A stretch of DNA of 64,000 nt from Minisyncoccota bacterium (GCA_041651395.1 JBAZJI010000001.1:315920-379919); one strand, 5' to 3'; numbered from the stretch's first letter, positions 3,466 to 39,630 are shown. The notes: generated by a model from the sequence alone, not told the origin. Translations and numbers: made by a program.

Positions 3466-4929
3466 ATGGCCGAGCGCGCCTTTCGCCCCACAATTGGTTT
3501 GGAGATACATGCCGAGCTTAAAACGCAAAGCAAAATGTTTTGTTCGTGTGCTAATTGTACGCACCAAATCGAGCCCAACAAAAATATTTGTCCTGTTTGC
3601 ACCGGACAACCCGGAGTGCTTCCCGTGCCCAATGAAGAAGCGATAAAAGAGGTTATCAAAACCGGTATCGCGCTTAATTGCTCCATTGCCAAAAATTCCA
3701 AATTTGACCGCAAAAATTATTTTTATCCGGATCTGCCCAAGGGTTACCAAATTTCCCAATTCGATTTGCCGATTTGCGAAAATGGGTTTTTAATAATCGG
3801 AGAGAAAAAAATCAGGATAAAAAGAATACATTTAGAAGAGGATGCAGCTAAAAATTTCCACCAAAACGGCCAAACTTTAGTTGATTATAATCGGGCCGGT
3901 GTGCCTTTATTGGAACTGGTAACCGAGCCTGATATTACTTCTGGCGAGGAAGCTAAAAAATTCGGGCAAGAATTGCAGCTTTTACTGCGTTACCTTAATG
4001 TCTGCGATGGGGATATGGAAAAAGGGCAGTTGCGCCTCGAGGTTAATATCTCCATTTCGGATAGTGAAATATTTGGCACCAAGGTTGAGGTAAAAAATAT
4101 TAACAGTTTTGCCAATGCTGAGCGGGCCATTAATTACGAAATCGATCGGCAGGTAAAGGCGATTATGGCCAATGAAAAAATTACGCAGGAAACGCGCGGT
4201 TTTGACGCGGTCAAAGGCATTACAGTTGCGCAAAGAAGCAAAGAAGGTTCTAGTGATTATCGGTATTTTCCCGAGCCTGATATTCCGGTTTTGGATTTTT
4301 CCAAATGGGATATAGATTCTTTGAAACACGAAATTCCTGAATTGCCATGGGATAAGCGCGCCCGTTTTGCACGAGAATTCGAGCTTGATCTCAAATCTGT
4401 GGAGGTTTTAGTCAATAATCGGGAACTAGCCGATTATTATGAAAAAATTTGCACCGAATTGGGCGAAGCGGCCAAGGCAGAAAAAACTAAGGGGGATTTC
4501 AAAAAACTGGCAAAATTAGCCAGCAATTATCTGATAAACGATTATTTGGCTTTGATGTGGGCTACTCAAAAAGACGATAATAAATGGCCGATTACTCCGG
4601 AAAATTTTGCGGAATTTATTGCCAAGGTTAATGCCGGGGAGGTAAACAGCGCGAGTGCCAAAGTTGTTTTGGCGAAAATGTTTGCCACGGGCGCTGATCC
4701 GGGCCACCTTATCCAAGACCTTGGCCTTACCCAGATTGACGATGCGCAGGCCATAGCCCAAGTGGCGCAAAAAGTTATCCAAGAAAATCCGAAATCCGTG
4801 GCCGATTATAAAAAAGGCAAAGAGAATGCCATTATGTTCTTGGTGGGCGGTGTAATGAAAGAAATGAAGGGAAGGGCTAAGCCCGATGTGGCCAGAGATG
4901 TCTTAAAAAAAATATTGGATGCGCAATAA
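3466..4929 (+). CDS. gatB: Asp/Glu-tRNA amidotransferase subunit B
   Basis: 487 aa. GatB blocks PTIGLEIHAEL, CPVCTGQPGVLP and IHLEEDA, plus a C-terminal GatB/YqeY-like domain. Confidence 0.92.
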   Translation: MAERAFRPTIGLEIHAELKTQSKMFCSCANCTHQIEPNKNICPVCTGQPGVLPVPNEEAIKEVIKTGIALNCSIAKNSKFDRKNYFYPDLPKGYQISQFDLPICENGFLIIGEKKIRIKRIHLEEDAAKNFHQNGQTLVDYNRAGVPLLELVTEPDITSGEEAKKFGQELQLLLRYLNVCDGDMEKGQLRLEVNISISDSEIFGTKVEVKNINSFANAERAINYEIDRQVKAIMANEKITQETRGFDAVKGITVAQRSKEGSSDYRYFPEPDIPVLDFSKWDIDSLKHEIPELPWDKRARFAREFELDLKSVEVLVNNRELADYYEKICTELGEAAKAEKTKGDFKKLAKLASNYLINDYLALMWATQKDDNKWPITPENFAEFIAKVNAGEVNSASAKVVLAKMFATGADPGHLIQDLGLTQIDDAQAIAQVAQKVIQENPKSVADYKKGKENAIMFLVGGVMKEMKGRAKPDVARDVLKKILDAQ

Positions 4930-10540: not shown

Positions 10541-11203
10541 ATGATGGAGAGGGAAAAACTTTCGATTAGTGATGCGGACGTCCAAGCCATGCTCGCCGAA
10601 CAAGATAGGCTAGAGGGCAATGGGAATGTTGAAATATTGGAAAAGCAGGAATGGTATTTGGCTATGTGCAAATATGATCCAGTGACGGCGAAGGAAATCA
10701 TCGAGGCGATTGAACTTTACGACGATGGTTTTACGACGGCGCTCTCCAATGTGATGCCATATTCTGAAGCTAAAAATAATTCTTCGGTTATCGTTGCCGA
10801 CCTCTTCCGTTTTTTCTGTGTAGCTCTCAGCCCGATCTACCACGCATATGGCTTGTTTCCCAAAATTAAAAGAAGGGATATTCAGATGTTTCAGGCCGGA
10901 AAAGTTTTGCCAAATGCCTCCAAGGAAAGTTTTGGTAAGTGTTGGGTTGAAACTGCGGAAAAATCTTTGGAGTATGTTCGCGAAACGATTAAATTAAGTA
11001 ACGCTCTCTGGTCTAATGTATTTGAAAGCATAGTCACCAGATTTCTAGACCGAGAGTCTTTGGGCTTATTCAGCATGACTTTGGTATTGGTGCTCAGGGC
11101 TAGCAGTTACTTGCTGCCAATGGACAACGGTGAATTGGCTCAATGGTTCGATAAGCAAGTGGATCCGGGTAAGGGAGGAGGAAAGTATGTCGGTAACGGC
11201 TAA
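10541..11203 (+). CDS. Hypothetical cytoplasmic protein, translationally coupled to nadD
   Basis: 220 aa. ATG 4 nt after AAGGAGG. Its 3' end contains the nadD SD and overlaps the nadD start by 17 nt. No family recognised. Confidence 0.6.
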   Translation: MMEREKLSISDADVQAMLAEQDRLEGNGNVEILEKQEWYLAMCKYDPVTAKEIIEAIELYDDGFTTALSNVMPYSEAKNNSSVIVADLFRFFCVALSPIYHAYGLFPKIKRRDIQMFQAGKVLPNASKESFGKCWVETAEKSLEYVRETIKLSNALWSNVFESIVTRFLDRESLGLFSMTLVLVLRASSYLLPMDNGELAQWFDKQVDPGKGGGKYVGNG

Positions 11204-11789
11204 AAAGATTGCAATTTTCGGCGGTAGCTTTGACCCGCCAACGCTTTCACACCGCCGGGCGGCCCAAAAACTGGCCAGCGAATTCGATCATGTTTTTATC
11301 GTTCCTTGCGGGCAGAGATCAGATAAAGGCAAACCGCACGCTATGAGGATGGCTTTGGAGCGCATGGCTATGTGTGATTTGAATTTCTACAACCTGCATC
11401 CCAATATCACTATAGATTTTTTTGATATCCAACACGACAAATTTACAACCACTTTTGAAATGCAAAAGCATTACGAAAGATTGGGCGAAATTTGGCACGT
11501 GGTGGGCGGAGACCTAATCCTGGGCGGCGCTGATGGTTGCTCGGAAATTCAGAAAAAGTGGAGTGAGGGCTGTTGGCTTTGGGAAAATTTGAATTTTGTC
11601 GTTATACCGCGGCCGGGATATCGCTTCTGCTTGCAGGACTGTCCGCCTCACCGCAAAATTATCTGGCTTGATACGGATTGTTCCAGCACTAAAGCGCGCC
11701 AAGCTGCAAAGCAAAATAATTCCCTGCGCAGCCTTGTCACTTCCGAAATTGAAACCTACATCTTCGTCAAAAATCTTTATCAAGATTAG
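11187..11789 (+). CDS. nadD: Nicotinate/nicotinamide mononucleotide adenylyltransferase
   Basis: ATG 11187 follows GGGAGGAGG. Motifs IFGGSFDPPTLSH, VVGGDLI and SSTKAR (SxTxxR) match the NadD/NMNAT nucleotidyltransferase family. Confidence 0.8.
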   Translation: MSVTAKKIAIFGGSFDPPTLSHRRAAQKLASEFDHVFIVPCGQRSDKGKPHAMRMALERMAMCDLNFYNLHPNITIDFFDIQHDKFTTTFEMQKHYERLGEIWHVVGGDLILGGADGCSEIQKKWSEGCWLWENLNFVVIPRPGYRFCLQDCPPHRKIIWLDTDCSSTKARQAAKQNNSLRSLVTSEIETYIFVKNLYQD

Positions 11790-20243: not shown

Positions 20244-20330
20244 AATTTTCCACAGGCAAAAATGTATTAAATTTGTCGAGCGCAGAGTATAATTAGGCAA
20301 GCAAGGCTGTTTGCGTGGCCGTTGCTTTTT

Positions 20331-21113
20331 ATGGAGTATAAGAGGTTGTTATACATAATTTTCATATTATTCATATCGCTGACTAGCGTGCATATTTTGG
20401 TGGAGGCGGCTACTTCCGATGCTTATAAAAGCAGCCAGGATAATGCCGGGCCCATGCCTTTTAATGCTTCGACGAGTAATTATAATTTTAAGGCAGTCGT
20501 CGGGGAGCCGGGTTCGGGTATCTCTACCTCGACTAATTATATTTATGAGCACGGCGTGTTCTGGGATCAGGAGCAGGCCAGCACCACTTGCACTATAAAA
20601 TGGGCTACGCCTGAGGGCCGTAGTGGCACAGCCGAAACCAATGACCATGTTACTTTTTATTTAATTGTTAAGGGTGGCGGTAGTACGGTTTTAATTACGC
20701 CCTTGGCCACTACTTCGCATGCGGGCACAACCAGTGAGCAAATTGATTTATCTATTTTGGGTCCGGGCTCTTACGATATCGGGATAAAAACCAACCAACA
20801 CATCACCAAAATGTTGCGGGGAGTCGCTATTGCTACCGGGACAAATGTTTTGAATTTTACCCAAGCCAATAATAGTTCACCTAAGGGCAGCGTGCGGCTT
20901 TTGGCCGGTGATGTGAACGGTGCCGGCAATACCACCTCTACATTGGGAGATGATGTGGTAAATTCCGTGGACGCTTCATTGATTATTTCCCAACTCGATC
21001 AGACCGACCCTACCAATGATACTTACCGGGGGAATTTGAATTTTGATTCGGTTGTCAATGCGGTAGATTTGTCGCTTTTGATAAAAAATTTAGATGTGCA
21101 CGGAGATCAGTAA
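20331..21113 (+). CDS. Secreted protein with C-terminal dockerin-like repeats
   Basis: ATG 20331 gives a signal/anchor sequence. The C-terminus carries two Ca-loop/helix repeats: GDVNGAGN..DDVVNSVDASLIISQL and GNLNFDSVVNAVDLSLLIKNL. Confidence 0.55.
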   Translation: MEYKRLLYIIFILFISLTSVHILVEAATSDAYKSSQDNAGPMPFNASTSNYNFKAVVGEPGSGISTSTNYIYEHGVFWDQEQASTTCTIKWATPEGRSGTAETNDHVTFYLIVKGGGSTVLITPLATTSHAGTTSEQIDLSILGPGSYDIGIKTNQHITKMLRGVAIATGTNVLNFTQANNSSPKGSVRLLAGDVNGAGNTTSTLGDDVVNSVDASLIISQLDQTDPTNDTYRGNLNFDSVVNAVDLSLLIKNLDVHGDQ

Positions 21114-21176: not shown

Positions 21177-23534
21177 ATGAAAGCGCAGAATATAATTTCA
21201 TATTTCTTCATCGCCGCACTTTTGTTGTGCTTTGGCCTGACGGCCGTGGCGGCAGCGCCCAGCGGCAACCATTGGTTTCAAATAATTGCCCAAACCTATA
21301 CCGGCAGTGATGCTACCGGAGATGGCGGCACAGGCGATGCTTCGGATTTTAATTACTATTATGTTGGCCAAACTTTCCGCGGGACAGTGCAAATAAAGTC
21401 CACCGGCACTACGGCTGCTAATATCAAATTAACTTATCCGACTGCTTACCTGACGATTTCCAATTTGCTTGCCGGCTCCTATTTTACCGAATATCCTTCC
21501 ACCGGGCAGGCTACTTCCAGCGGCATTGTCCGTTTAACCGGAACCAGAATGTCTGGTGTTTCTTCGGCTACCGGAACATTTGGTTATATTGATTTTGTAA
21601 TGGGCACATCTTCGGCCTGTAATTATTCCACGACTAGTTACCAAACACTTTCTTTTACGACGAGCACCAACGGTTTAGGTGATGTTTCCAGTATTGCTTA
21701 TCAGGGTATTAATTATTTGGATAGTAAAGAAGATTTTAATTTTCACATTTGGGCGGATTTGAAAAATCCTTTCGCCACCGGGACTAATATAACCAACGCT
21801 TCAACTGGCGTGCCTGTCGACCTTAATTACATTTTTGCCTTACGCGATACCAAGAATGGTTCGAGCAGCAATACTGGAGTTGGCACGGGCATTAATACGG
21901 CCGCCGGCGGCCGAACTTTGACTTTTAATGACGGCACAGGGGCAACGAGCTACTTGGCTTATACTTCATATAGCTGTTCTGGCACTTGGAACACTAATTG
22001 CACCACGACCGTGAACCCGGATAGCCCATTGGCTATTACCGGAGATACGCGTAATTGGAAGTATAATACTTCCTATACTATTAATGTTTCCGGATACGCT
22101 GACCGGGCTTCGACGGCGCAAGCTAATACCTCTTGCCCGGGAGAGGCTAATGGCCCCAATAGTATGGATGCCTCCACTTGGACTTTTACCACCGAGTCTG
22201 ACACCATTGCCCCCAGTGTTTCTTCGACTTCGCCTGCCGCCGGAGCTTCGGGCGTGGCCACAACATCTAATGTGGTTGTAGAAATAATTGATATTAAAGC
22301 GGCTAACATTTCCGGTGAGGGTGTTTCTTCCACCAGCTGTCAAATAGATTTGAATGTTCCTTCTTGGGGCGGCACTTGGGTGAGCTTCGATTCCGCCACT
22401 TCAACTGTTACGGTTACGCCCATCAATTATGGTTATCGTTACACTATTGATCCTTCCAGTAATTTCGCACAAAACGAAACTGTCTCCGCCAGAATCCGTA
22501 ATTGCTATGATTTGGCCAATAATGTGAGTTCTACTGATCCGCTCCTTTCTTGGACATTTGCCACGGCCGATAATGACCCGCCTTATGTCACGCCCGTTAA
22601 CCCGGTTGATAAACAGTCGATCGTGGATACTGCGGCTATAGTTTTTAACTTGCGCGATTTGGGCGTGGGCGTGAGCTTGGCCAATACTTTCATTTATGTC
22701 GATGGTTTATGGTGGTCTAATGCCGGTGGTTCGGGCACGATTGCTACCAGTGGAGCTAATATTGCCTTTGCCACGAGCAATAATTTCAACGGAGGGAATT
22801 ATGCCGGCGACACTTCAGGGATTTCCGCTATTGCTAATGGCTATACTTTTACCCTAAAAAAACAAGGGGCTTTTACCACAGGCTCAATACCCATTGAGGT
22901 ATTTTCCCGCGATACTTCCAATAATTTAATGCATCGTTATTTGTATGGGGCGGTAGCGGGCACAGCGACTTGCGCGTCGAGCACCTGTTATGATAATAAT
23001 TGCTGCTCTAGCGGCACGACTTGGAATGGTTTGACTTGCACGGCCACTTTAGGCAGTGCTTATTGCGGTTCTAATACCTCCTGGAACGGTAGTCTTTGTA
23101 TTGGCTCTGCTTCAAGTGGAGGAATGAGTGCGGGCGGTGGCGGTGGCTTGCCGGGCAAGGATTATTGCGGTTCCAATACGCGATGGGATGGCCGTAAATG
23201 TATTGCTTCGAGCACGGCCGCAGTGGCTAAGTGTATACCCACCACCCAAACAAAGTTTATCGAAATTCCCAAAGAAATTACCAAATACATTTCGATCCCG
23301 AAAATCGAATATCGTTTCGTCGAGAGAGCTGCTGAAGAGCAAAAAGTGGAGCCGATAAACCGTAAGCTTTTAGAAAATCTTTTAGCTATTTTAAGCGTGG
23401 CCGATCGGGCGCCGCAGGATGGTAAGGACGATTTACAGGACATCAAAATCGTGGAAATTCCTCAAGTTGGAGAAACTATCAGAGTAACCGGTAGGGCGCA
23501 GCCCGGACAAAAATTGAAAATAATTGTCAAATAA
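21177..23534 (+). CDS. Secreted multidomain protein: cohesin-like N-domain, SbsA-type Ig-like domains, Cys-motif repeats; C-terminal Ig domain truncated by stop
   Basis: 785 aa with a signal peptide. Ig-like segments begin DTIAPSVSSTSPAAGASGV and DNDPPYVTPVNPVD. The motif C-x-S-N-T-x-W-(N/D)-G-x-x-C occurs three times. The ORF ends inside an Ig-like domain (see findings). Confidence 0.55.
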   Translation: MKAQNIISYFFIAALLLCFGLTAVAAAPSGNHWFQIIAQTYTGSDATGDGGTGDASDFNYYYVGQTFRGTVQIKSTGTTAANIKLTYPTAYLTISNLLAGSYFTEYPSTGQATSSGIVRLTGTRMSGVSSATGTFGYIDFVMGTSSACNYSTTSYQTLSFTTSTNGLGDVSSIAYQGINYLDSKEDFNFHIWADLKNPFATGTNITNASTGVPVDLNYIFALRDTKNGSSSNTGVGTGINTAAGGRTLTFNDGTGATSYLAYTSYSCSGTWNTNCTTTVNPDSPLAITGDTRNWKYNTSYTINVSGYADRASTAQANTSCPGEANGPNSMDASTWTFTTESDTIAPSVSSTSPAAGASGVATTSNVVVEIIDIKAANISGEGVSSTSCQIDLNVPSWGGTWVSFDSATSTVTVTPINYGYRYTIDPSSNFAQNETVSARIRNCYDLANNVSSTDPLLSWTFATADNDPPYVTPVNPVDKQSIVDTAAIVFNLRDLGVGVSLANTFIYVDGLWWSNAGGSGTIATSGANIAFATSNNFNGGNYAGDTSGISAIANGYTFTLKKQGAFTTGSIPIEVFSRDTSNNLMHRYLYGAVAGTATCASSTCYDNNCCSSGTTWNGLTCTATLGSAYCGSNTSWNGSLCIGSASSGGMSAGGGGGLPGKDYCGSNTRWDGRKCIASSTAAVAKCIPTTQTKFIEIPKEITKYISIPKIEYRFVERAAEEQKVEPINRKLLENLLAILSVADRAPQDGKDDLQDIKIVEIPQVGETIRVTGRAQPGQKLKIIVK

Positions 23535-23535
23535 T

Positions 23536-24582
23536 ATGGCTGAACCGCAAATATACGAAGTAACAGCCGACCAAAATGGTAACTGGGAAGTAAATCTCCC
23601 TAATACTTTTGGCAATGGGGTACATGCCGTGACCGCTATTGATCAGGATGGTAATAAGGATGCAGTCGTGGTGGATATTAAGGGCGAACCGGAAACCAAA
23701 ACTGTGGTACAGGAAAAAATCGTTACGCAGGAAGTAGTTAAGGAAATTATGCCACAAGGTTTGTTTCTTTGGGTAACGCTGCTTTATTTAACGGCTATGC
23801 TGGTATCTTTGGGAATGATTTATTTTTCCCGCAAAGCCAAAGAACAGGACGGCAGCCAATCCAAAGCCAAAGGTGTGGGGTTGGTTTTCGGGGTTTTGGT
23901 TATGATTTTGGCGACTGTACTTTATATTTATGCTTCTTATTCTTTTGGCTTAATAAAAAGCTTGGCCCTGAAAGACAATATAATGCAGGCCTCACTGGTT
24001 TCTTTGGCACGCCAAGCTAAAGAAGATGTCCGGCATATAAACATAGAAGGTATTGTCACGGATCCGACTACTAAGCAAGGTTTGGAAGGGGTAAGCATTT
24101 CTGCGGGCTCAACCGTTGTTAAAACACCTAAGGGCGGTGAGTTTGCTTTGGGCTCTATAGTGGAAGGCGAGGGTGTCAAAATCGATTACCCGGTTTTAAG
24201 CCGACCCTTGCGCTATAAAGCCAAAGAAGGTAAGCAGGAAATTATTTTTGACCCCATGCTTTATAATGCAGCTATCAAAGTGACTGATTTGGAAGCGCAC
24301 AATAAGGTAGATGGCATATATTTGGAAATGCTCTCCACGGCCAATCAGCAGAAATTATCATTGGATGAATTTGTTAAGAATTATCAAAAGGGTTTTAATA
24401 AGCTCAATGAAGTAATGCCGGAATTGATTGTTTTGGATGCGAATGTGCATAGCCCATGGAGTTCGCCCCAATATGCGGTGCAATACCCGATGGTTGTGGA
24501 ATTAAAATTAGGAAACGGTCAGGGCGGGGAAAGTAATTATTTTTTTGCTCTCGAGGAAGGGATGTGGAAGTTAGTTCAGTAA
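23536..24582 (+). CDS. Membrane protein carrying the second half of the split Ig-like domain, two TM helices and a CarboxypepD_reg-like domain
   Basis: ATG 23536 follows the upstream stop after a 1-nt gap, in the +1 frame. N-terminus YEVTADQNGNWEVNLP..GVHAVTAIDQDGNKD, then two TM helices, then IEGIVTDPTTKQGLEGVSISAG. It may be the 3' part of a frameshifted single gene. Confidence 0.5.
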   Translation: MAEPQIYEVTADQNGNWEVNLPNTFGNGVHAVTAIDQDGNKDAVVVDIKGEPETKTVVQEKIVTQEVVKEIMPQGLFLWVTLLYLTAMLVSLGMIYFSRKAKEQDGSQSKAKGVGLVFGVLVMILATVLYIYASYSFGLIKSLALKDNIMQASLVSLARQAKEDVRHINIEGIVTDPTTKQGLEGVSISAGSTVVKTPKGGEFALGSIVEGEGVKIDYPVLSRPLRYKAKEGKQEIIFDPMLYNAAIKVTDLEAHNKVDGIYLEMLSTANQQKLSLDEFVKNYQKGFNKLNEVMPELIVLDANVHSPWSSPQYAVQYPMVVELKLGNGQGGESNYFFALEEGMWKLVQ

Positions 24583-24604: not shown

Positions 24605-27600
24605 ATGCCTAAAAACATCAAACAATTGTCAGTTAAAATAATTATCGCGACGTTTGGCATGGCGCTTTTGGCAGTCACGGCTTGGGCGGCAACACCGTCT
24701 TTCATGAATTACCATTCGCGGCTACGTGATGCTTCGGGTTTCCCGATTTCGGCGAGCACTTCTATCCGTTTTACGATTTATAATGACGCCACCAACGGCA
24801 ATGGTAATACGCAGGCAACTTCAGCCGGCGGGCCGGTATTATGGAGCGAGCTTTACGATCAAGGCCTTGGTAATTGCGCCCAAGTCCAACCTGATGACCG
24901 CGGTTACTTTACGGCTAAACTCGGTTCTTGCATACCATTCCCTCCAAATTTGGATTTTACTACCAGCACACTTTATTTAGGTGTAACTATCGGCACGGAT
25001 TTATCCAGCAATACCGAGGCTAGCCCGCGGGTGCAATTTGGGGCCGCCCCTTATGCTTTTAATGCCAAGCGCGTTGGTAATTTTTATGACAGTGGTGCAA
25101 ATTCTCTTGTTGGGGAAGCTTTGGGCACGGCCACGGCCGGGAGCAATTTTAATTCAGCTTCATTTTTACTCAATGGTTCGGCATGGACTGGGAGTGCTGC
25201 TACTTCGGTTTCCATGGTTTTGCAAAATATTGTTACTAGCCAAACAGTTTACAAATTGCAAGTCGCCAATGCCTCTGGCGCGGAATTATTTTCTATAAAT
25301 CAATCCGGTGTGGCTTCAACAACGCAATTAGTTGTGGCTCAAGCTATGCAGTTTACCAGCACAACACCAACCATTACTTTGGGAAGTAACGATTCTGCCG
25401 GTATTCTGACAGTTAAAGATAGCGCGGCCACCCCTAATACATTAATGGCACTTTCCGATTCGGGCACGGCAGGGCTTTTGACCGTGGGCACGGTTTCGAC
25501 CACCCAGTTTGTTTTAGGAGTCGATTCCATAACTGATTTGACCGGCGCCGGTCTTAAAGTAGTCGCCAATGCTTTGCGTGCGGAAATTAATTTGTCTACC
25601 GATCAGGTAACTAGCACTTTAGGAATTGATAATGGTGGCACCAATGCCACTTCCGGGCAGCTGACCGCCAATCAAATAATTGTTTTTGACGGCACACGAA
25701 TGATTACCACCGGGTATCGGGTTGTGGATTTTATGTCGAGCAGTTCGGTTACTACCAGCCAATTTACCGTGCTTGGCGATACTTATCTGGCTACCACTAC
25801 CATCTCGACAACTTTGACTGTGCAGGGCAATACTTATTTGGCCACCACTAGCTTAACCTTTCTTAATGCCAGCACGGTTAATGCGGCAAACGCATCTTTT
25901 ACCAATGCTACCTCAGGCAATTTGTATGTTTATAATTCAACGGCCGGCAATTCTACTACCACTAATTTATATGTGAGTAATTCGGCAACATTCAACACTA
26001 CAACCTTTAATGGCCCGGTTACAATGGCCACTACCACCGTTAGCCTCCTTAACGCCTCAAGCTCATTTTTTACCAATGCCACAGCTACCAATTTTTACGC
26101 AAGTAATTTTACCGCCTCAACGGGAACTTTTACCGGGCATTTATCTTTTACCACCGCTTCGGGCACGGCCTTGACTTTGACGAGTAATTTATGGACCGGG
26201 GGAATGCTTCAGGTTACCGGCACATCCACGTTGGCAACAACTACCATTGCGGCACTTACGGTTTCGGGCACCTCCACTCTGGGGGCAACAGTACTTTCCG
26301 GCTTTACTGCGGGATCGGCTTTGTTCGTTGGGGCTAATAGCCAGATCGCTCAAGATAATTCCAATTTTTATTGGGACGATACCAATAATCGTTTAGGTTT
26401 GGGCACCTCCACACCGGCCCAACGTTTGACAATCAATGGCGGAAACATTTTCCAATATTCGACCGGAACAATTTCCAAAATCAGTTCCTCTTCGGCTAAT
26501 TACGCCAACGGGCTTTCACTAAGCGGGAAGATTTTGGCAGTTTCCGATAATGATAGCGGGGCAGGCAACGCTCACTTAGATTTTTACGATATTTCTGATC
26601 GCGCCAATATGTCTTTGCTAAGCACTTATACATCCGTTCAGACTTCCGATTACATGGAGGAGGTTTTTATTGCCAGCAATTTCGCTTATACAGCTGCCTC
26701 TTCAGGAATGCACATTATTGATATTTCCAATCCCAAAGCGCCAGTTTTGGCTGGATTTTATGCTACACCCTCCACAACTAAAAGCATTTATGTTTCCGGT
26801 AAATATGCCTATTTAGGAGTTTCAAAAGGCACGGGCGTTGGTGGGCTTTATGTAATTGATATTTCTTCTTCCACTAATCCGGTTTTGACGGGAAATGTCG
26901 CAGTTAATACTGGCAGTAACCATGTTTTTGATATCGTTGTGCGCGGCAAGTATGCCTATTTGGCAGCCGATGGTGATGGATTAAAGATTGTTGATATTTC
27001 CAACCCGGCAAGTCCGGCGGTGGTTGGGACATATTATTCTGCCGGTCCCACTAATCCTTCGGGCTATGCTGCGGGAGTTTATGTTTCTGGTAAATATGCC
27101 TATTTAGCCGATCTTTCAGATGGATTAGATAATGGTGGAATGAAAATTATTGATATTTCCGATCCGACAAGTCCAACTCTTGCTGCCAATTATGATTTAG
27201 GTGCGCGTTCGGTCAATAATATTATTGTTAACGGGCGATACGCTTATTTGTCAATTTATAATTTTACGAACGGTGAATTGCAAATCGTGGATATTGCGAG
27301 CTCTACTGCACCATTTTTAACATCTAAATATGCCGATAATTTGATTTATGATGTTGCACTTTCGGGCAAAACGGCATTTGTGGCTGACTGGACTGGAGGA
27401 GTAGTGGCGCTCGATATCAGCGGTGCTGATTTGCCGACTCTCAACGCGGGCAATATCGAAACTAGTTTTGCCAACATCACGGAAAATGCCGTGGTGGCCA
27501 ATTCTTTGTATGTGGGCAGCGGTTTGACCGTGGGCCCTTCGGGCATCAAATCAGGTGGTGGTTTGGCTTTTGATTCTACAAGTTCTGCATCGTATTTTGC

Positions 27601-30600
27601 TTATCGCTTGGGCATTGGCACAACTACGCCTGCCTATCCCTTAGATGTGGTGGGCAATGCCAGAATAAGTGGCACAACTACGCTTGGCGCTTATGATATA
27701 ACAAAATATTCCGGAACCGATAATCAAGTTTTAACTTATGTCTCCGGCAAAGCGGTGTGGCAAACTCCGGCAGGCGGTGGCTTGCCTAATGGTACGGTTG
27801 GTTACACCTTAGTGAGTGGTGGCGGAGCGACATGGAACGCTACTAATACTTTGGTTGTAACTTCTTCGGCTCTTGGTTATCGAGTGGGTATCAATACGAC
27901 AACTCCGGCTTTTTCTTTGGATGTAGCGGGCACGGTTAATGCTTCGACTAGCGGTTATCGTCTGGGAACAAATAAGGGAATTATGCACGTTAGTACGAGC
28001 GCCGCACTCACTTCATGGACGCCCAATGGCGCTAATTCGGCAGGCGGGCTTTTTGTGGAGAGTGGGGCTGATGGCGGTTTCTCTGGCCTTTATATGGATG
28101 AGGATATGATAAAATTGGTGACTGGAGCTTCTGGCAATTTTTACCTCATGAATGGAGTTAATGCCACTTCCTTCTCTTTTGTCAGTGGTGGCGGTTTTGG
28201 TATGAATGGTGGGGCTAATAGTTTCATTTGGGCTACTTCTAATCCCAGCGCTATGAGCCCCGGGGTTGGGCGTTTGGGCATTTTGGAAAAAACCGGAACC
28301 GATGCGGTAGAAGTCCGCGATGCCGACTTGGCGGTTTATGGCACATCGACCATGCGCAATATTTTACCCGAAGCCAATTTAACTTACAGTTTGGGCAATG
28401 CCTCATATCGTTGGCTTAATATGTATGCCTCCACTACCTATATTGGTTCGGGCACTTGGCAGCTTTTGCAAGAAGGCGGCTCTGGCGCCTTTATCATCCA
28501 AGATACGGGTGGCAATCGGGCAGGCTTGCTTTATGTTTCCTCTACTAAAGGTGTAGCTATCGGGACCACGACCGTGATGAGTCAGGCCTTTAATTTAGAT
28601 GGTGCTGCCCTGTTTATTCCTACCAGTACCACTCCGGCTTCAGTAACCGGTTCGATGTATTACGATTTGACTAATAATCGATTCAGCTTTTTCCAGAATG
28701 GCGCTTGGAGTTCTTATACGGCGGCCAGTGGCACAGCCATGACCGGTGTGGCGGCCGGGTATAATTCCGTAGCATATTGGGCGGATAATAGTACGTTGGC
28801 GGGTACTTCCACATTTATTTATAATGCCACTTCTTCGCAGTTGGGCTTGGGTGCCACTTCTTCGCAGCTTTCCGCCATGTTGCAAATTAATACCACTGGC
28901 ACAATTTTTAATAATTTGCTTTTAAGTCGAACGCATAAAGGCGAAGGCGAATTGACAATCCAATCTAACACTACTTCTATCGCAATAAATTCATTGGAGC
29001 TTGGCACAATGGCCTTTGGCAATGTTTCATTGGGTCCTTCAGCTGGTGTGGTAGCTCTTGGCGGAGTCACAGCAATTGGATATCAGGCGGGGCATGTAAC
29101 AGTTGCCAGTACAACATTGGTTGGATATCAGGCGGGGTTATCTGGGCCAGGGATTGGTTTAACGGCAATCGGATATCAGGCAGCCACTGCAAATGGCGGA
29201 GGTGCATTTAATACAGCAGTTGGCTATTCCGCCTTGGCTGCTAATAGTTCCAATGATAATACGGCCGTTGGGTATAATTCCCTTGCATTAAATGCTGCCG
29301 CGAACAATACTGCTTTTGGCTCACAATCATTGAGCGTGAATGTTAATGGAATTGATAATACCGCAATCGGATATCATTCCATGAAGGCATTTAATCCAGC
29401 TTCAAGCGATGCAAATAATACTGCGGTCGGTTCCGATGTTTTACCTAATTTGCAGCAGGGAAGTGGAAATACAGCCCTTGGTTACAACACCGGACTAACA
29501 CAGTCAAGTGGTGATTCCAATATTTTTCTTGGCTCAAATATTCAGGCGGAGCCCGGATATACAACTGCGGATTATCGTTTATATATTGATGCGGACGCAC
29601 CGGATATGAACACTCCTGTTCCTCCCACTCCGCCATTTCAGTATGCGATTGTCGGGCAATTAAAAAATGTGGCCGCTGACGGAACCTATGGCCGCATACC
29701 GCACAATGCGATTGGCATCAATTCTTCGCAGGCTGATCTTGATGCGTCGCTGCTAAATTTTTATGTCTATGGCGCGGCCGGTGGTACGACGCCTTGGAAT
29801 ACTCTTTCGGATGCAAACCTTAAAGATGTTAATGGTGATATTTTTGGTTCGGCTTTAGGGATTGTAAATGCATTGCATCCCGTAAAGTATAAATGGAATG
29901 ATTTGGCGAACCAAGAATTCCAGCTCAATCAAAACGCAGAAAATTATGGATTTTTGGCGCAGGAGGTCAATAATATTCTGCCTTCAATAGTTGGTTCCGG
30001 TGGAAAATATTGGATGATGCGTTATGAAGGTATTATCCCGATTCTTACCGCCGCCATTCAGGAACAGCAAGCCCAAATCGAGGCTCTTAGGGTTGCCACT
30101 TCGAGCTTTGCTGGCAATGTTACGGTTAGCGAGCTTAAAGTGGAAGGGAGGCTGATTGTTAAAGATAACGTGACATTGGGCCTTGATACGGTTGGTCAAG
30201 TTATGGTGCCCACAGGGCAAGCCAGTGCGCATATTGCTTTCAGTAAAGCTTATGATACTTTGCCCATTATTACTGTTACGCCTATTGGCATAATTGACGC
30301 CAAATTTGGGGTGGATAATATTACCAAGTCTGGTTTTGATCTGGTGGTCAGCCCGGCCCAGAACCAAGAAATGTTCTTTAATTGGCACGCCTTTGCCATT
30401 GCCGACGAAACTAAGATTATCGTAGCTAATAGTTCGCCTGTTGTAGCTGCGCCTTTTGTCCCGAGTGTGCTGCCCACAAGTACCCCCGAAGTTGCCCCAA
30501 CCTCCACAGAGGCTGTGAATTCCAGCAGCAGTGAGCCGATAATTAATAATGAAATAGCTACATCCTCGGTCTCTTCCACTTTACCCGAGGCGGTAAGCAG

Positions 30601-30619
30601 CAGTGAGCCGATAAACTAA
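24605..30619 (+). CDS. Giant surface protein: LVIVD-repeat propeller, YadA-head-like repeats, phage tail-fibre S74 intramolecular chaperone domain, H-type-lectin-like domain
   Basis: 2004 aa with a signal peptide. LVIVD-type repeats (YAYLAADGDGLKIVDISNPASPAVVG and similar) lie at ~26430-27440. (A/T)(I/V)GYQA repeats lie at ~29040-29540. The S74 block is SDANLKDVNGD..LHPVKYKW..YGFLAQEV..ILPSIV..RYEGIIPILTAAIQEQQAQIEAL at ~29806-30090. Confidence 0.75.
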   Translation: MPKNIKQLSVKIIIATFGMALLAVTAWAATPSFMNYHSRLRDASGFPISASTSIRFTIYNDATNGNGNTQATSAGGPVLWSELYDQGLGNCAQVQPDDRGYFTAKLGSCIPFPPNLDFTTSTLYLGVTIGTDLSSNTEASPRVQFGAAPYAFNAKRVGNFYDSGANSLVGEALGTATAGSNFNSASFLLNGSAWTGSAATSVSMVLQNIVTSQTVYKLQVANASGAELFSINQSGVASTTQLVVAQAMQFTSTTPTITLGSNDSAGILTVKDSAATPNTLMALSDSGTAGLLTVGTVSTTQFVLGVDSITDLTGAGLKVVANALRAEINLSTDQVTSTLGIDNGGTNATSGQLTANQIIVFDGTRMITTGYRVVDFMSSSSVTTSQFTVLGDTYLATTTISTTLTVQGNTYLATTSLTFLNASTVNAANASFTNATSGNLYVYNSTAGNSTTTNLYVSNSATFNTTTFNGPVTMATTTVSLLNASSSFFTNATATNFYASNFTASTGTFTGHLSFTTASGTALTLTSNLWTGGMLQVTGTSTLATTTIAALTVSGTSTLGATVLSGFTAGSALFVGANSQIAQDNSNFYWDDTNNRLGLGTSTPAQRLTINGGNIFQYSTGTISKISSSSANYANGLSLSGKILAVSDNDSGAGNAHLDFYDISDRANMSLLSTYTSVQTSDYMEEVFIASNFAYTAASSGMHIIDISNPKAPVLAGFYATPSTTKSIYVSGKYAYLGVSKGTGVGGLYVIDISSSTNPVLTGNVAVNTGSNHVFDIVVRGKYAYLAADGDGLKIVDISNPASPAVVGTYYSAGPTNPSGYAAGVYVSGKYAYLADLSDGLDNGGMKIIDISDPTSPTLAANYDLGARSVNNIIVNGRYAYLSIYNFTNGELQIVDIASSTAPFLTSKYADNLIYDVALSGKTAFVADWTGGVVALDISGADLPTLNAGNIETSFANITENAVVANSLYVGSGLTVGPSGIKSGGGLAFDSTSSASYFAYRLGIGTTTPAYPLDVVGNARISGTTTLGAYDITKYSGTDNQVLTYVSGKAVWQTPAGGGLPNGTVGYTLVSGGGATWNATNTLVVTSSALGYRVGINTTTPAFSLDVAGTVNASTSGYRLGTNKGIMHVSTSAALTSWTPNGANSAGGLFVESGADGGFSGLYMDEDMIKLVTGASGNFYLMNGVNATSFSFVSGGGFGMNGGANSFIWATSNPSAMSPGVGRLGILEKTGTDAVEVRDADLAVYGTSTMRNILPEANLTYSLGNASYRWLNMYASTTYIGSGTWQLLQEGGSGAFIIQDTGGNRAGLLYVSSTKGVAIGTTTVMSQAFNLDGAALFIPTSTTPASVTGSMYYDLTNNRFSFFQNGAWSSYTAASGTAMTGVAAGYNSVAYWADNSTLAGTSTFIYNATSSQLGLGATSSQLSAMLQINTTGTIFNNLLLSRTHKGEGELTIQSNTTSIAINSLELGTMAFGNVSLGPSAGVVALGGVTAIGYQAGHVTVASTTLVGYQAGLSGPGIGLTAIGYQAATANGGGAFNTAVGYSALAANSSNDNTAVGYNSLALNAAANNTAFGSQSLSVNVNGIDNTAIGYHSMKAFNPASSDANNTAVGSDVLPNLQQGSGNTALGYNTGLTQSSGDSNIFLGSNIQAEPGYTTADYRLYIDADAPDMNTPVPPTPPFQYAIVGQLKNVAADGTYGRIPHNAIGINSSQADLDASLLNFYVYGAAGGTTPWNTLSDANLKDVNGDIFGSALGIVNALHPVKYKWNDLANQEFQLNQNAENYGFLAQEVNNILPSIVGSGGKYWMMRYEGIIPILTAAIQEQQAQIEALRVATSSFAGNVTVSELKVEGRLIVKDNVTLGLDTVGQVMVPTGQASAHIAFSKAYDTLPIITVTPIGIIDAKFGVDNITKSGFDLVVSPAQNQEMFFNWHAFAIADETKIIVANSSPVVAAPFVPSVLPTSTPEVAPTSTEAVNSSSSEPIINNEIATSSVSSTLPEAVSSSEPIN

Positions 30620-35479: not shown

Positions 35480-36268
35480 ATGCCTAAAAAGATTATTGTT
35501 TTGGTGGCCTTGGGGGTGATTTTGGCTATCTCCCTACCTTTTGCATACCAGAATTTTTTCTCGGCGAAAAATAAAAATGAGACGCCGTATCGTAGCGGCA
35601 ATCTAAAAGTTGTAGCTTCTATTTTCCCGGTAGCCGATATTGCCAAAAGCATAGGCGGGCGCAATGTCGAAGTTGTCACATTGGTGCCTTTGGGCATGGA
35701 TATCCATACTTATGAGCCGACGGCCGAAGATGTTAATAAAATATCAGGAGCCGATATCTTTATTTATGCGGGCCGCGGCGCTGATGCGTGGGCTCGAAAA
35801 TTCGTGGAGGAAAACCCTAATGCTAAATTAGTTTACCTTGATGCTTCCCAGGGAGAAGAAAAAGTCCCCACTCTTGTTGGTAGCGACGGCCAAGGTCATT
35901 ATTGGCTTTATCCGGAAAGTTTGGCGGCCGTAGCGCAAAATATCGGGAATGTTTTTTCAAAAATAGATCCGGATAATAAGGAGTATTATAAAAAAAATAC
36001 TCAGGTTGTCTGCGAGGATTATCAACAATTAGTCCGCCAATACGAAATTTTGAAAAGCTGCCCTAAAAAGGAAGTAAAATATGCAGGGCATTTCGCTTTT
36101 GGCTGGCTAGCCAGTGCATACAAACTACGATTCAGGGAGGGTAAGCCCGCCGTGGCGCTTTTTGATGCCGAGAATCCCGACAAGGCCCAACGTGACGCTA
36201 ATATTACGCTTTTGGAATTTTTGAATATGAATTTGTCAAATCTGAAAACCGCATTAGAATGTAAATAA
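35480..36268 (+). CDS. ZnuA/TroA-like metal-binding protein, short form
   Basis: 262 aa with an N-terminal anchor. Metal-ligand blocks DIHTYEP, GHYWLYP and AGHFAFGW are present. The C-terminal lobe looks shorter than in typical ZnuA. Confidence 0.68.
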   Translation: MPKKIIVLVALGVILAISLPFAYQNFFSAKNKNETPYRSGNLKVVASIFPVADIAKSIGGRNVEVVTLVPLGMDIHTYEPTAEDVNKISGADIFIYAGRGADAWARKFVEENPNAKLVYLDASQGEEKVPTLVGSDGQGHYWLYPESLAAVAQNIGNVFSKIDPDNKEYYKKNTQVVCEDYQQLVRQYEILKSCPKKEVKYAGHFAFGWLASAYKLRFREGKPAVALFDAENPDKAQRDANITLLEFLNMNLSNLKTALECK

Positions 36269-36269
36269 T

Positions 36270-37010
36270 ATGTCACTCTTATTACTGATTGTTTTAAGCA
36301 CGCTCTTTATCGGTTTAGCCGCCTTTGCCGGTCTTTTGGGCTTGGCTATGCAGCCAGAACGGCTCAACCGGATAATATTGTATTTGGTGAGCTTTTCCGT
36401 TGGCGCCCTTATGGGTGACGCCTTTATTCACATTATTCCTGAAGCATTTGAGGAAATGGGCTTTGGGATGCAGGTGCCGATTTTAATACTTTGTGGTTAT
36501 TTGTTGTTTTTTGTTTTAGAAAAATTTTTACTTTGGCGCCACTGCCATGATAACGATTGTCAGGGCCATATTAAGCCCTTGGCTACTTTGAGCATTGTTG
36601 GCGATGCAATACATAATGTTATAGATGGGATGTTTATTGCCTCGAGTTTTTTGATTTCTATTCCTTTAGGCATCTCTACAACATTGGCGGTTTTTTTGCA
36701 CGAAATTCCCCATGAATTGGGTAATTTTGCAATTTTAGTCCATGCGGGGCTAAAGCGGAAAAAAGCTATAATTTATAATTTTGCGACCGGTATCGCATCT
36801 GTTCTGGGGGCTATTGCCACTTATTATATCGGGTTAAGATTTTCCGGATTTTCTATCATGCTTTTGCCCGTAACGGCCGGCGGGTTTTTGTATGTAGCCG
36901 GTTCTGATTTGATACCAGAGTTGCATCACGAAAATAATTTGCATCGTAGTATCAAACAACTAGTGTGTATTTTGTTGGGAATTTTGATTATGAGTATAAT
37001 AGGGAAGTAA
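36270..37010 (+). CDS. zupT: ZIP-family divalent metal transporter
   Basis: 246 aa, polytopic. It has the HEIPHELGNFAILV signature, a His-rich loop and HxxD motifs. Confidence 0.85.
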   Translation: MSLLLLIVLSTLFIGLAAFAGLLGLAMQPERLNRIILYLVSFSVGALMGDAFIHIIPEAFEEMGFGMQVPILILCGYLLFFVLEKFLLWRHCHDNDCQGHIKPLATLSIVGDAIHNVIDGMFIASSFLISIPLGISTTLAVFLHEIPHELGNFAILVHAGLKRKKAIIYNFATGIASVLGAIATYYIGLRFSGFSIMLLPVTAGGFLYVAGSDLIPELHHENNLHRSIKQLVCILLGILIMSIIGK

Positions 37011-37805: not shown

Positions 37806-38558
37806 ATGTTCACAGCAATTTATATTCTTTGGTATAGGCAAATTATAAAATATTTTCGCTCCCCGGTTCGCCTTGTCGGTTCTTTGGGCCAACCAATTTT
37901 ATTTATGATCGCCTTCGGTTTTGGGCTTAATCGGATGTATCAGGGGTCGGGCGGCCAAGGTACCTATTTGCAGTTTATCGCCCCCGGTATAATGGCCATG
38001 TCGGTAATTTTTATGGCCTTCTTTTCCGGAGTGGAAGTGATTTGGGACAGGAAATTTGGCTTTTTGCGCGAAACCTTGGTGGCACCGGTTCCACGGTTTG
38101 CTATTGTGTTGGGCAAGGTTTTAGGCGGTTCGACTATTGCCGTTTTTCAGGGTATTGTGGTATTTTTGGTTTCTTTAGCTTTTGGTTTCCGGCCAGAGAA
38201 TTGGCTGATGGTGCCATTCGGCTTTTTTTATCTTTTTCTTATTGCATTTTTTTGTTCGGCCTTGGGAATTCTAATAGCTTGCAATATGGACGACGGCGAA
38301 GCTTTCCCCGTTATCATGAATTTTGTCGTGATGCCTTTGTATTTTCTTTCCGGCGCATTTTTTTCCGTCAAAGATAGCCCGGATTTTCTCAGAAATATAA
38401 TTAGCTTCAATCCGATTGCCTATGGAGTTGATGGCGCGCGCGGCGCCATGATGAATAATGGTTATTTCGGTTTTGGTACTGATGCCCTCGTGCTTATCGT
38501 TTGTGGTTTGGCGCTTTTGGCGCTTGGTAATTATTTTTTTGCAAAAATTGAAGTCTGA
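37806..38558 (+). CDS. ABC-2 type transporter permease
   Basis: 250 aa with six predicted TM helices, directly downstream of the ATPase gene. Confidence 0.8.
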   Translation: MFTAIYILWYRQIIKYFRSPVRLVGSLGQPILFMIAFGFGLNRMYQGSGGQGTYLQFIAPGIMAMSVIFMAFFSGVEVIWDRKFGFLRETLVAPVPRFAIVLGKVLGGSTIAVFQGIVVFLVSLAFGFRPENWLMVPFGFFYLFLIAFFCSALGILIACNMDDGEAFPVIMNFVVMPLYFLSGAFFSVKDSPDFLRNIISFNPIAYGVDGARGAMMNNGYFGFGTDALVLIVCGLALLALGNYFFAKIEV

Positions 38559-38565
38559 TTTTTAC

Positions 38566-39630
38566 ATGTTTGCCAAAGAATTGTTCAAAATTACGTTGGT
38601 AATAATTTTGTTTGCAGCCGGCTTATTTGTCTGCGGGCAGCTTGGCTGGGAAATTGGCGAGCTTGCAGGCAATATTGCTCAGCCTTTGGCGATTCCCGTA
38701 TTTTTTAAGGCAAAATTGCCTGAAAAACCAGTTCAGATTTTTATCGTTGGAGATATTATGCTTGACCGGGGCGTGGAGAAAAAAATCAAGAAAAGCGGGG
38801 ACTGGGGATACCCTTTCGCAAAAATCAAGGATTTGTTTTCCGGTTTTAATTATGGGGTGGCTAATTTGGAAGGGCCGGTTTTAAGCCAGCCTCCGGATAC
38901 CGGGGCTGCCTCTATGAGTTTTGCTTTTGCCAGTTCCTCAATTATTGGCTTAAAAGAGGCGGGGATAAATTTGGTTTCTTTAGCCAATAATCATACTGAC
39001 AATATGGGCTATAGCGGTTTGGACGAGACGCGTCTTTTGCTCTCCAGGCAGGATTTAGTGGGTTTTGGGCATCCCTACGGCTGTACTACCAGCGATGCTT
39101 ACGCTAGTGGCAGTTTAATATTTTTTGCTTTCAATGATATATTTCCGGGAAATTGCACAAGCGGACAACTTGCGGCTATAATTTCAACTTTGCGTCAAGA
39201 AAATGCTACTTCCGTAATAATGGTTATGCCCCATTGGGGCGAGGAATATTCGCTTTATAGTAATGCCCGTCAAAAAGATTTAGCCCATACTCTAGTTGAG
39301 GCGGGTGCGGACTTGGTAATCGGGGGCCATCCGCATGTGGTGCAGGAAATCGAACAATATCAGGGAAAACTTATATTTTATTCTTTGGGCAATTTTGTTT
39401 TTGATCAATATTTTTCTAAAAATACTCAACAAGGATTGGGTTTAGGGCTTTCAATTTCTGCTAATACCAGCAGCCTCACTCTTTGGCCGCTTGATCTTTC
39501 TTTAAGCCAGCCTAAATTAATGGATACAACTTCTTCGGCTGCATTTTTACAATCTTTGAGTAAGAGATCGAGCCCAGAATTATCCGAGGCGATAAAAAAA
39601 TGTTATATTGAAATCGAACATAAACCATAA
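38566..39630 (+). CDS. CapA/PgsA-family metallophosphatase-like protein
   Basis: I use ATG 38566; the track start at 38458 overlaps the permease gene. N-terminal anchor, then GDIMLDRG, ANLEGP, ANNHTDN, PHWGEEY, GGHPHV and GNFVFD. Confidence 0.8.
   Translation: MFAKELFKITLVIILFAAGLFVCGQLGWEIGELAGNIAQPLAIPVFFKAKLPEKPVQIFIVGDIMLDRGVEKKIKKSGDWGYPFAKIKDLFSGFNYGVANLEGPVLSQPPDTGAASMSFAFASSSIIGLKEAGINLVSLANNHTDNMGYSGLDETRLLLSRQDLVGFGHPYGCTTSDAYASGSLIFFAFNDIFPGNCTSGQLAAIISTLRQENATSVIMVMPHWGEEYSLYSNARQKDLAHTLVEAGADLVIGGHPHVVQEIEQYQGKLIFYSLGNFVFDQYFSKNTQQGLGLGLSISANTSSLTLWPLDLSLSQPKLMDTTSSAAFLQSLSKRSSPELSEAIKKCYIEIEHKP

Follow-up and report, generated by a model that had tools for sequence, protein, structure and literature searches.

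Immunoglobulin (Ig)-like domains that are divided into two pieces are familiar from engineered systems such as SpyTag/SpyCatcher (CnaB2) and isopeptag/pilin-C, of which the Spy systems are man-made and locked by an isopeptide bond, while C. difficile SlpA has interlocked interaction domains in its low and high molecular weight (LMW and HMW) parts, which are split by proteolysis of one precursor. Among natural surface structures, the Pam pili of bacteria of the Candidate Phyla Radiation (CPR) have truncated Ig-like domains that undergo donor-strand exchange, and a predicted role of PamR, which is anchored in the membrane, is to hold the Pam filament there by strand insertion (Troman et al., bioRxiv 10.64898/2026.03.03.709456). 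When we searched the literature on naturally split Ig domains or fission within a domain, nothing specific was found. Here we describe a locus in a 64,000-nucleotide stretch of DNA from a Minisyncoccota bacterium (GCA_041651395.1, JBAZJI010000001.1:315920-379919; hereafter, the window) in which one Ig-like domain is encoded in two parts by two adjacent open reading frames, ORF1 and ORF2. A first reading made from the sequence alone (the original prediction) had noted the divided domain and offered a disruptive frameshift, a 1-nt assembly error or recoding as its cause. Our analyses leave us highly confident that the split is genuine, ancient and independent of reading frame, and we consider it reasonably probable that ORF1 and ORF2 are separately initiated, coupled genes derived from an ancient fission within the domain, whose halves complete the Ig fold in trans.

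One Ig-like domain encoded by two adjacent genes

The features of the locus, all on the + strand, are as follows.

21177..23534, +, ORF1, 785 aa, stop TAA at 23532-34
23445..23531, +, final ~29 ORF1 residues (IKIV...TIRVTGR...KLKIIVK), which form the donor part of the divided Ig-like domain, with strands A'/A and B predicted
23521..23538, +, junction, TAA(+1 frame)-TTG TCA AA[A TAA] T ATG, comprising the ORF1 stop, a 1-nt spacer and the ORF2 start
23536..24582, +, ORF2, 348 aa, ATG start at 23536-38, in the +1 frame relative to ORF1
23536..23679, +, ORF2 aa 1-48, which form the acceptor part of the divided Ig-like domain, with four strands predicted (QIYEVT, NWEVNLP, GVHAVTAID and KDAVVVDI)
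23758..23826, +, first transmembrane segment (TM1) of ORF2, aa ~75-97, GLFLWVTLLYLTAMLVSLGMIYF, from a hydropathy scan and the helices of an AlphaFold2 (AF2) model
23872..23955, +, second transmembrane segment (TM2) of ORF2, aa ~113-140, from the hydropathy scan
24028..24579, +, predicted extracytoplasmic C-terminal domain of ORF2, a transthyretin/CarboxypepD_reg-like beta-sandwich followed by an alpha/beta module

The evidence that the end of ORF1 and the beginning of ORF2 belong to one domain comes from profiles and from fold prediction. When the ORF1 tail and ORF2 head were joined, Big_6 (PF17936) matched them with 30.2 bits, above its gathering score of 27.6, over positions 14-73 of the 83 in the profile and so across the junction, versus 14.1 bits and profile positions 37-73 only for ORF2 alone. 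Likewise, Big_13 (PF19077) scored 27.5 bits against the joined sequence (cut-off 27) and 18.0 against ORF2 alone, in which only the C-terminal half of the profile was covered; the cut-offs of both families were reached only by the two ORFs joined. A junction profile was also made from 11 sequences, i.e., the concatenated tails and heads from nine lineages and two contiguous relatives. These sequences aligned readily, all 11 were matched by Big_13, and the matches of their profile to single-chain Ig-like domains of solved structure ran across the junction (Bap 7dm0, E=7e-12; SiiE 2yn3, E=9e-7). By alignment with 38 canonical giant-adhesin repeats, the break point falls in the short turn between the '..V.I.V' and '..G..TAD' strands, which is the B-C turn.

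The AF2 model of a 106-residue concatenation of the ORF1 tail and ORF2 head, produced with an alignment of canonical single-chain domains, is one seven-strand sandwich with predicted local distance difference test (pLDDT) values of 87-95 over residues 31-90. Three of its strands lie before the junction (construct residues 17-20, 27-33 and 39-45, within ORF1 aa 757-785) and four after it (50-55, 61-67, 73-81 and 86-93). Foldseek superposed this model on the SiiE BIg domain 2yn3 over ~80 columns with a root-mean-square deviation of 2.9 and 28% identity, and also on Bap 7dm0. These profile and fold matches spanning the junction bear out the original proposal that a single bacterial Ig-like domain is distributed, in complementary parts, over the two ORFs. 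Joined, the ORF1 tail and the ORF2 head are one Big_6/Big_13-type domain, and neither is complete as a domain alone.

The junction between ORF1 and ORF2

The coordinates and translations of both ORFs in the original prediction, and its observation that the +1 frame is closed by a TAA at 23521-23, were confirmed from the sequence. ORF1 ends ...GETIRVTGRAQPGQKLKIIVK, that is, ...KLKIIVK followed by TAA, and the translation of ORF2 opens MAEPQIYEVTADQNGNWEVNLPNTFGNGVHAVTAIDQDGNKD..., its N-terminal peptide being (M)AEPQIYEVTADQNGNWEVNLPNTFGNGVHAVTAIDQDGNK. The DNA at the junction reads GTC AAA TAA t ATG GCT. Beyond the TAA at 23521-23 the +1 frame is reopened with a TTG at 23524 and the ATG at 23536. 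As this TTG is not conserved, being TCG in a relative of 63% identity (L003), we take the ATG at 23536 to be the start of ORF2; at the L003 junction an ATG is the sole available start. The 20 nt of the junction are unchanged in L003 and in the closer relative L007 although synonymous divergence is saturated, and in the comparison with L003 synonymous change dips at the junction, with 2 of 12 codons changed versus a background of ~0.5, which is consistent with an initiation region.

There was no Shine-Dalgarno (SD) motif or SD-like stimulator upstream of the junction. We rejected this absence as evidence for recoding, as many genes within the window are also without an SD motif. The same arrangement, TAAtATG, joins the ordinary neighboring genes at 35480-36268 and 36270-37010 (site 36268-36272), and for that reason it seems to be a common way of coupling genes in this genome. 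In all eight lineages with a split domain that are considered below, the distance from stop to start lies between -8 and +3 nt and an ATG is present, as expected of translational coupling, and from these sequences we infer that ORF1 and ORF2 are coupled by termination-reinitiation.

The same split in diverged relatives

An exhaustive phmmer search with ORF2 returned 143 representatives of 50%-identity clusters, most of which are 330-355 aa in length and align with ORF2 from end to end. It was this search of representatives that uncovered the family, as a word-index homolog search with an ORF2 profile had given six proteins; a search for related loci in metagenome contigs with a 3-sequence alignment found none. 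About 80 of 82 ORF2-like proteins start with M, 10-25 residues and then DxxGxW, which indicates that they begin in the middle of the domain; ORF2 and these ~80 relatives encode an incomplete Ig-like fold, without strands A and B. Correspondingly, among 38 close ORF1-like proteins, 26 finish with the hairpin seen in ORF1 (...G.A.P..K.K..IY) and have no TM segment.

Eight distinct lineages, whose ORF2 identities range from 21 to 63%, are split at the same loop. In every one of them the upstream ORF stops right past the second strand of this hairpin and an ATG comes immediately next. The junctions (last sense codon, stop, spacer and start) are as follows.

Window, L007 and L003: AAA-TAA-t-ATG, ORF2 in frame +1
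L015: GAA-TAA-a-ATG, ORF2 in frame +1
L017: TAC-TAA-t-ATG, ORF2 in frame +1
L019: TAC-TGA-t-ATG, ORF2 in frame +1
L016: TAT-TAA-tt-ATG, ORF2 in frame +2
L008: TAT-TAA-tat-ATG, ORF2 in frame 0
L009: TAT-TAG-cct-ATG, ORF2 in frame 0
L010-12: ATGAGTAG, 8-nt overlap, last sense codon GAG, ORF2 in frame +1

The adjacency of ORF1 and ORF2 and their tight stop/start arrangement are kept in every locus with upstream DNA, and it is only this pair of genes that is syntenic across the lineages. Both half-domains keep the canonical signature residues of the Ig-like domain at divergences down to ~21% identity. At the other extreme, the identical junction is found in the ENA, Logan and NCBI assemblies of the window's sequence, in L007 (the species representative, 93% identity) and in L003 (63% identity; present in three Logan runs, L003-L005). 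The taxonomic labels attached to these sequences disagree: L007 (CAZQSQ010000001.1) is labeled 'uncultured Candidatus Saccharibacteria', the metagenome-assembled genome that holds the window, on a contig of ~950 kb, is Candidatus Paceibacterota (CPR/Patescibacteria) at NCBI, and one ORF1-like protein is assigned to Verrucomicrobiae.

Both genes are under strong purifying selection, and this includes both half-domains. The ratios of nonsynonymous to synonymous substitution rates (dN/dS) in comparison with L007 are 0.034 for ORF1 and 0.068 for ORF2, and that of ORF1 in comparison with L003 is 0.06. When the window is compared with L003, synonymous sites are saturated (dS of at least about 1.9), with both ORFs intact. 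Within ORF2, conservation is highest in the half-Ig head, which has a proportion of nonsynonymous differences (pN) of 0.08 versus 0.24 for the whole ORF.

Architecture and predicted topology of the two proteins

ORF1 has the architecture of a secreted surface protein, comprising an N-terminal Sec-type signal peptide (~aa 1-26, read off the sequence as MKAQNIISYFFIAALLLCFGLTAVAA/AP), Big_5/FN3-like domains (Big_5 match, 32.6 bits), Cys-rich repeats and the C-terminal half Ig-like domain, and has homologs in CPR bacteria (n=43). No sortase-type signal was noticed on ORF1. The Cys-rich repeats, of which there are about four short copies of the form (Y)CG(S/A)NT(S/R)W(N/D)G..C separated by Gly/Ser-rich linkers, lie at aa ~600-690 (~22970-23250); they are conserved in the majority of ORF1-like relatives, and no family matches them.

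The predicted layout of ORF2 is a truncated Ig-like N-terminal tail (N-tail), TM1, a basic loop, TM2 and the extracytoplasmic C-terminal domain. The last of these was modeled by AF2 with pLDDT values of 94-98, has weak Pfam matches and was found by Foldseek to resemble transthyretin-like domains (5aq0, E=1e-3). The N-tail that carries the acceptor part is acidic (~75 residues, net charge -8), and the loop between TM1 and TM2, SRKAKEQDGSQSKAK, is net positive and predicted to be cytoplasmic. These properties recur in the family: two TM segments are present in 82 of 82 ORF2-like proteins, the N-tail is net negative in 79 (mean -8.2) and the loop between the TM segments is net positive in 75 (mean +4.8). 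Given these charges and the positive-inside rule, an established principle of membrane protein topology, ORF2 is predicted to be oriented N-out, loop-in and C-out. The hydropathy scan identified no hydrophobic segment ahead of TM1 and therefore no signal peptide in ORF2, in agreement with the original prediction for the downstream product, and from its sequence we infer that the N-tail is exported N-out.

A comparison of orthologs had been proposed as a check on the original prediction, which would be refuted by orthologs that are consistently split at the same point and bear independent signal sequences. The orthologs are indeed consistently split at the same point and so count against that prediction, with the single difference that ORF2 has the predicted acidic N-out tail in place of a signal peptide.

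Continuous relatives and other modes of attachment

Judged from their sequences, members of the ORF1 family appear to use four solutions for attachment. In the majority the Ig-like domain is split and the anchor separate; in seven forms the ORF1-like part is fused directly to the anchor with no Ig-like domain; in P0175, weakly in P0135, and in P0024 (locus L013) fusion is via a contiguous Ig-like domain; and in P0177, P0178, P0180 and P0181 a contiguous Ig-like domain is followed by a dockerin-like end. Because dockerin-like ends and TM fusions without an Ig-like domain occur, the Ig module is not the sole route of attachment. The fused relatives (P0155, P0157, P0159, P0161, P0175, P0183, P0081 and P0079) are 1010-1135 aa in length, the seven besides P0175 being 1010-1120 aa, and have an N-terminal signal peptide, an ORF1-like ectodomain and then the same two TM segments and C-terminal domain as ORF2. 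Given this order, the region of the junction lies on the outside of the cell.

Continuous versions of the Ig-like domain therefore exist in this family, and they are rare. P0175 (1135 aa) has a contiguous Ig-like domain followed by the two TM segments and the C-terminal domain. The only close fused relative is L013 (P0024, JGI 3300050348; 2700-2840 and 4000-4090), which differs from the split L010 by a 2-nt 'AG' indel at the junction. We down-weighted L013 as proof of a close fused relative because its contig has another frameshift inside the ORF1-like part, and this contig may be error-prone or a decaying copy. At L014 (P0038, 1-280) an ORF2-like gene with a TTG start holds the whole Ig-like domain and has an in-frame TAG 21 nt upstream, and in this GC-rich lineage (contig of 1464 nt) the break may lie ahead of the domain. 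The suggestion that the ancestral gene was continuous, at about 1130 aa, is thus upheld to the extent that continuous forms such as P0175 are real in some lineages, but in the window's own clade the split has long been maintained.

Proposed assembly and alternative explanations

The sequence of events that we propose begins with the ancient gene fission inside an Ig-like domain that the above comparisons show, with the break in the turn after beta-strand B. Termination-reinitiation at TAA-n-ATG, or its equivalents in other lineages, would then lead to the synthesis of ORF1 and ORF2 at about 1:1. ORF1 would be exported by Sec, ending with the A/B hairpin, and the N-tail of ORF2 would be translocated, bearing the four remaining strands (C-G) outside the membrane. 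There the A/B hairpin of ORF1 would complete the truncated Ig fold of ORF2, a beta-hairpin complementation in trans, and the completed fold would tether ORF1 non-covalently to the membrane anchor with 1:1 stoichiometry. Assembly is possibly co-translational, as the ribosome would end one chain and restart the other at the same spot. Physical reassembly of the halves in this manner is, in our estimation, somewhat favored. That the pair constitutes a widespread two-gene surface-display module of CPR bacteria, with an Ig-like domain severed at the B-C turn and put together again extracellularly from two chains that are exported separately, we hold to be an even chance. The module is apparently confined to CPR bacteria, and the named relatives are nearly all Patescibacteria.

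Several points weigh against reassembly in trans. The AF2 concatenation speaks for compatibility of the two parts and not for heterodimerization, because the chain is artificial and the alignment favors the canonical fold. When AF2 was given the ORF1 tail and full ORF2, and the contiguous P0024 and P0038 were the only paired entries of the alignment, the ORF1 tail was left unplaced (pLDDT 45-68); in the same run the ORF2 half-domain had pLDDT values of 86-91 without its partner strands. Proteins related to PapD/PamC-like chaperones or to any Pam family were absent at threshold from the 16 neighboring proteins in an NCBIfam scan. Export of an N-tail of ~75 residues and four beta-strands without a signal peptide would have to occur, which we regard as plausible; signal-peptide-less translocation of acidic N-tails of such length is known elsewhere, e.g., in ProW. 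From the sequence at AAA-UAA, low-level frameshifting may also take place in the window's lineage. Binding of the ORF1 and ORF2 chains to one another is a proposed step, which we favor modestly.

A different outcome of the same history would be ancient fission without reassembly, in which ORF1 would be released or otherwise anchored and the ORF2 half would be completed by another partner or have taken a new role, for instance as a disordered or ligand-induced fold. The undocked ORF1 tail would agree with this, as would the lineages that use other ORF1 C-terminal modules (the dockerin-like ends of the four relatives named above and the seven direct TM fusions). We nevertheless consider it unlikely, since the Ig signature residues are kept in both halves down to ~21% identity, adjacency and tight stop/start coupling are kept wherever upstream DNA exists, and constraint within ORF2 is strongest on the head. 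In addition, a four-strand fragment without the central B strand of an Ig-like sandwich is not expected to be stable alone.

Explanations in which the junction is not a boundary between two genes fared less well. Programmed +1 ribosomal frameshifting at a shifty stop, AAA-UAA, would yield a fusion of ~1134 aa besides the 785-aa product, and when the window is viewed on its own the idea has appeal: the frame relation is +1, a Lys AAA codon precedes a stop that would occupy the A site, the junction nucleotides are shared by the window, L007 and L003, and the fused reading yields a good Ig-like domain. Recoding would need both the frame relation and the shift site to be conserved, and independent genes need neither, so that the variation we observed among orthologous junctions is that of two genes. 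The frame relation is 0 in L008 and L009 and +2 in L016, and L010 has an overlap of 8 nt; the P-site codons in the eight lineages are AAA, GAA, TAT, TAC, TAC, TAT, TAT and GAG, of which GAA, TAT, TAC and GAG are unable to re-pair in the +1 frame; TAA, TAG and TGA each serve as the stop; each junction has its own ATG; an SD-like stimulator is missing upstream; and TAAtATG also lies between ordinary genes of the genome. Recoding at the AAA-TAA junction, as entertained in the original prediction, is for these reasons very improbable. Stop-codon reassignment was also tried as an explanation and rejected, as TAA, TAG and TGA all terminate ordinary ORFs in the window.

The two remaining suggestions of the original prediction, a recent disruptive frameshift (pseudogenization) and a 1-nt assembly error (or, likewise, a sequencing error) within the A-run, draw on the in silico result that removal of a single A from CAAAT restores a continuous 1134-aa ORF and on the existence of the continuous P0175. 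An error does not explain an identical junction in three separate assemblies, in the relative of 93% identity and in three Logan runs of the relative of 63% identity. Nor do the ORFs have the relaxed selection and sporadic lesion of a pseudogene: dN/dS is 0.03-0.07 on both sides of the junction, and the split is common to >25 ORF1-like and ~80 ORF2-like clusters, which have diverged widely. With identical junctions in relatives and with both ORFs intact and selected, an assembly error and a recent pseudogene are in effect ruled out, and we assign them a vanishingly small probability. Our preference is for two coupled genes whose products complete one fold.

Neighboring genes

Directly upstream of ORF1 is a gene for a 263-aa protein (20322-21113, +) which has a C-terminal Dockerin_1 match of 25.5 bits, above the cut-off. 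The same protein has a weak N-terminal match to the NCBIfam family CPR_pilus_PamT (23 bits versus a cut-off of 240), the sole Pam match nearby. The dockerin on this upstream gene, taken with the dockerin-like ends of the four ORF1-like relatives, hints at an attachment system of the cohesin/dockerin type.

Directly downstream of ORF2 (24605-30619, +) is a gene for a protein of 2004 aa that resembles a tail fiber, with six LVIVD repeats, a Peptidase_S74 (endosialidase intramolecular chaperone) domain, a choice-of-anchor B region and a weak match to an H-type lectin. In L003, too, ORF2 is followed by this gene. In CPR genomes, a tail fiber-like protein is reported to co-localize with pam operons (bioRxiv 10.64898/2026.03.03.709456). 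Elsewhere in the window two same-strand pairs of ORFs overlap, 10541-11203 and 11130-11789 by 74 nt and 37806-38558 and 38458-39630 by 101 nt, and the starts of the second ORF in these pairs may be miscalled.

Comparison with known systems

If the halves do reassemble, the ORF1/ORF2 pair would offer bacteria without an outer membrane a compact genetic means to attach a large secreted protein to an anchor in the membrane. It would widen beta-strand complementation from pilus polymerization to 1:1 anchoring, and would provide a natural domain that is functional after a loop has been cut, with fission having occurred within a domain and not between domains. The pair would, moreover, be nature's non-covalent equivalent of the engineered split-Ig tags and a source of orthogonal split-tag pairs. 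For annotation, the locus illustrates that neighboring ORFs which jointly form one domain are not necessarily frameshift errors or recoding sites, and that a comparison of junction geometry among orthologs quickly separates error, recoding and fission.

The locus shares with the chaperone-usher (Pap/Fim) pili and the Pam pili an Ig-like fold that is encoded incomplete, and here too completion would be by another polypeptide; with the Pam pili, which we take as a precedent, it also shares a CPR host without an outer membrane and, on our model, a predicted membrane-anchored tether. It differs from these pili in what is missing and what supplies it. In the pili a single C-terminal G strand is replaced by an N-terminal extension or linker, whereas in ORF1/ORF2 the missing piece is an N-terminal A/B hairpin of two to three strands that would come from the C-terminus of the partner. 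The pili are polymers and ORF1/ORF2 a proposed 1:1 heterodimer of adjacent genes from one ancestral domain, and the domain is of the Big_6/Big_13 type and not a pilin fold. The ORF1/ORF2 locus is not a pam operon.

In sequence the closest likeness is to the single-chain domains of adhesins (SiiE BIg 2yn3 and Bap 7dm0), with which the joined halves have in common the signature I.VTG.A.P...V.I...AD.NGNW...L..G.H.VTA.D..GN and a predicted seven-strand sandwich. The adhesin domains are each one continuous chain and usually occur in tandem arrays, in contrast to the single copy spread over two gene products here. The likeness to the +1 frameshifting of prfB (release factor 2, RF2), a sense codon, an in-frame stop and a downstream ORF in the +1 frame, holds in the window only; unlike in prfB, the frame, stop and P-site codon vary among orthologs, an SD-like stimulator is lacking and an independent ATG is always present. 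With the Spy systems and SlpA the locus has in common a beta-sandwich divided into a small piece and a larger acceptor that serves, or here would serve, in joining surface proteins, but the ORF1/ORF2 split is genetic, natural and conserved, and shows no sign of covalent locking. The most fitting description of ORF1 and ORF2 is that of an Ig-like domain which is split in nature and conserved in that state, and which would extend beta-strand complementation in a new form.

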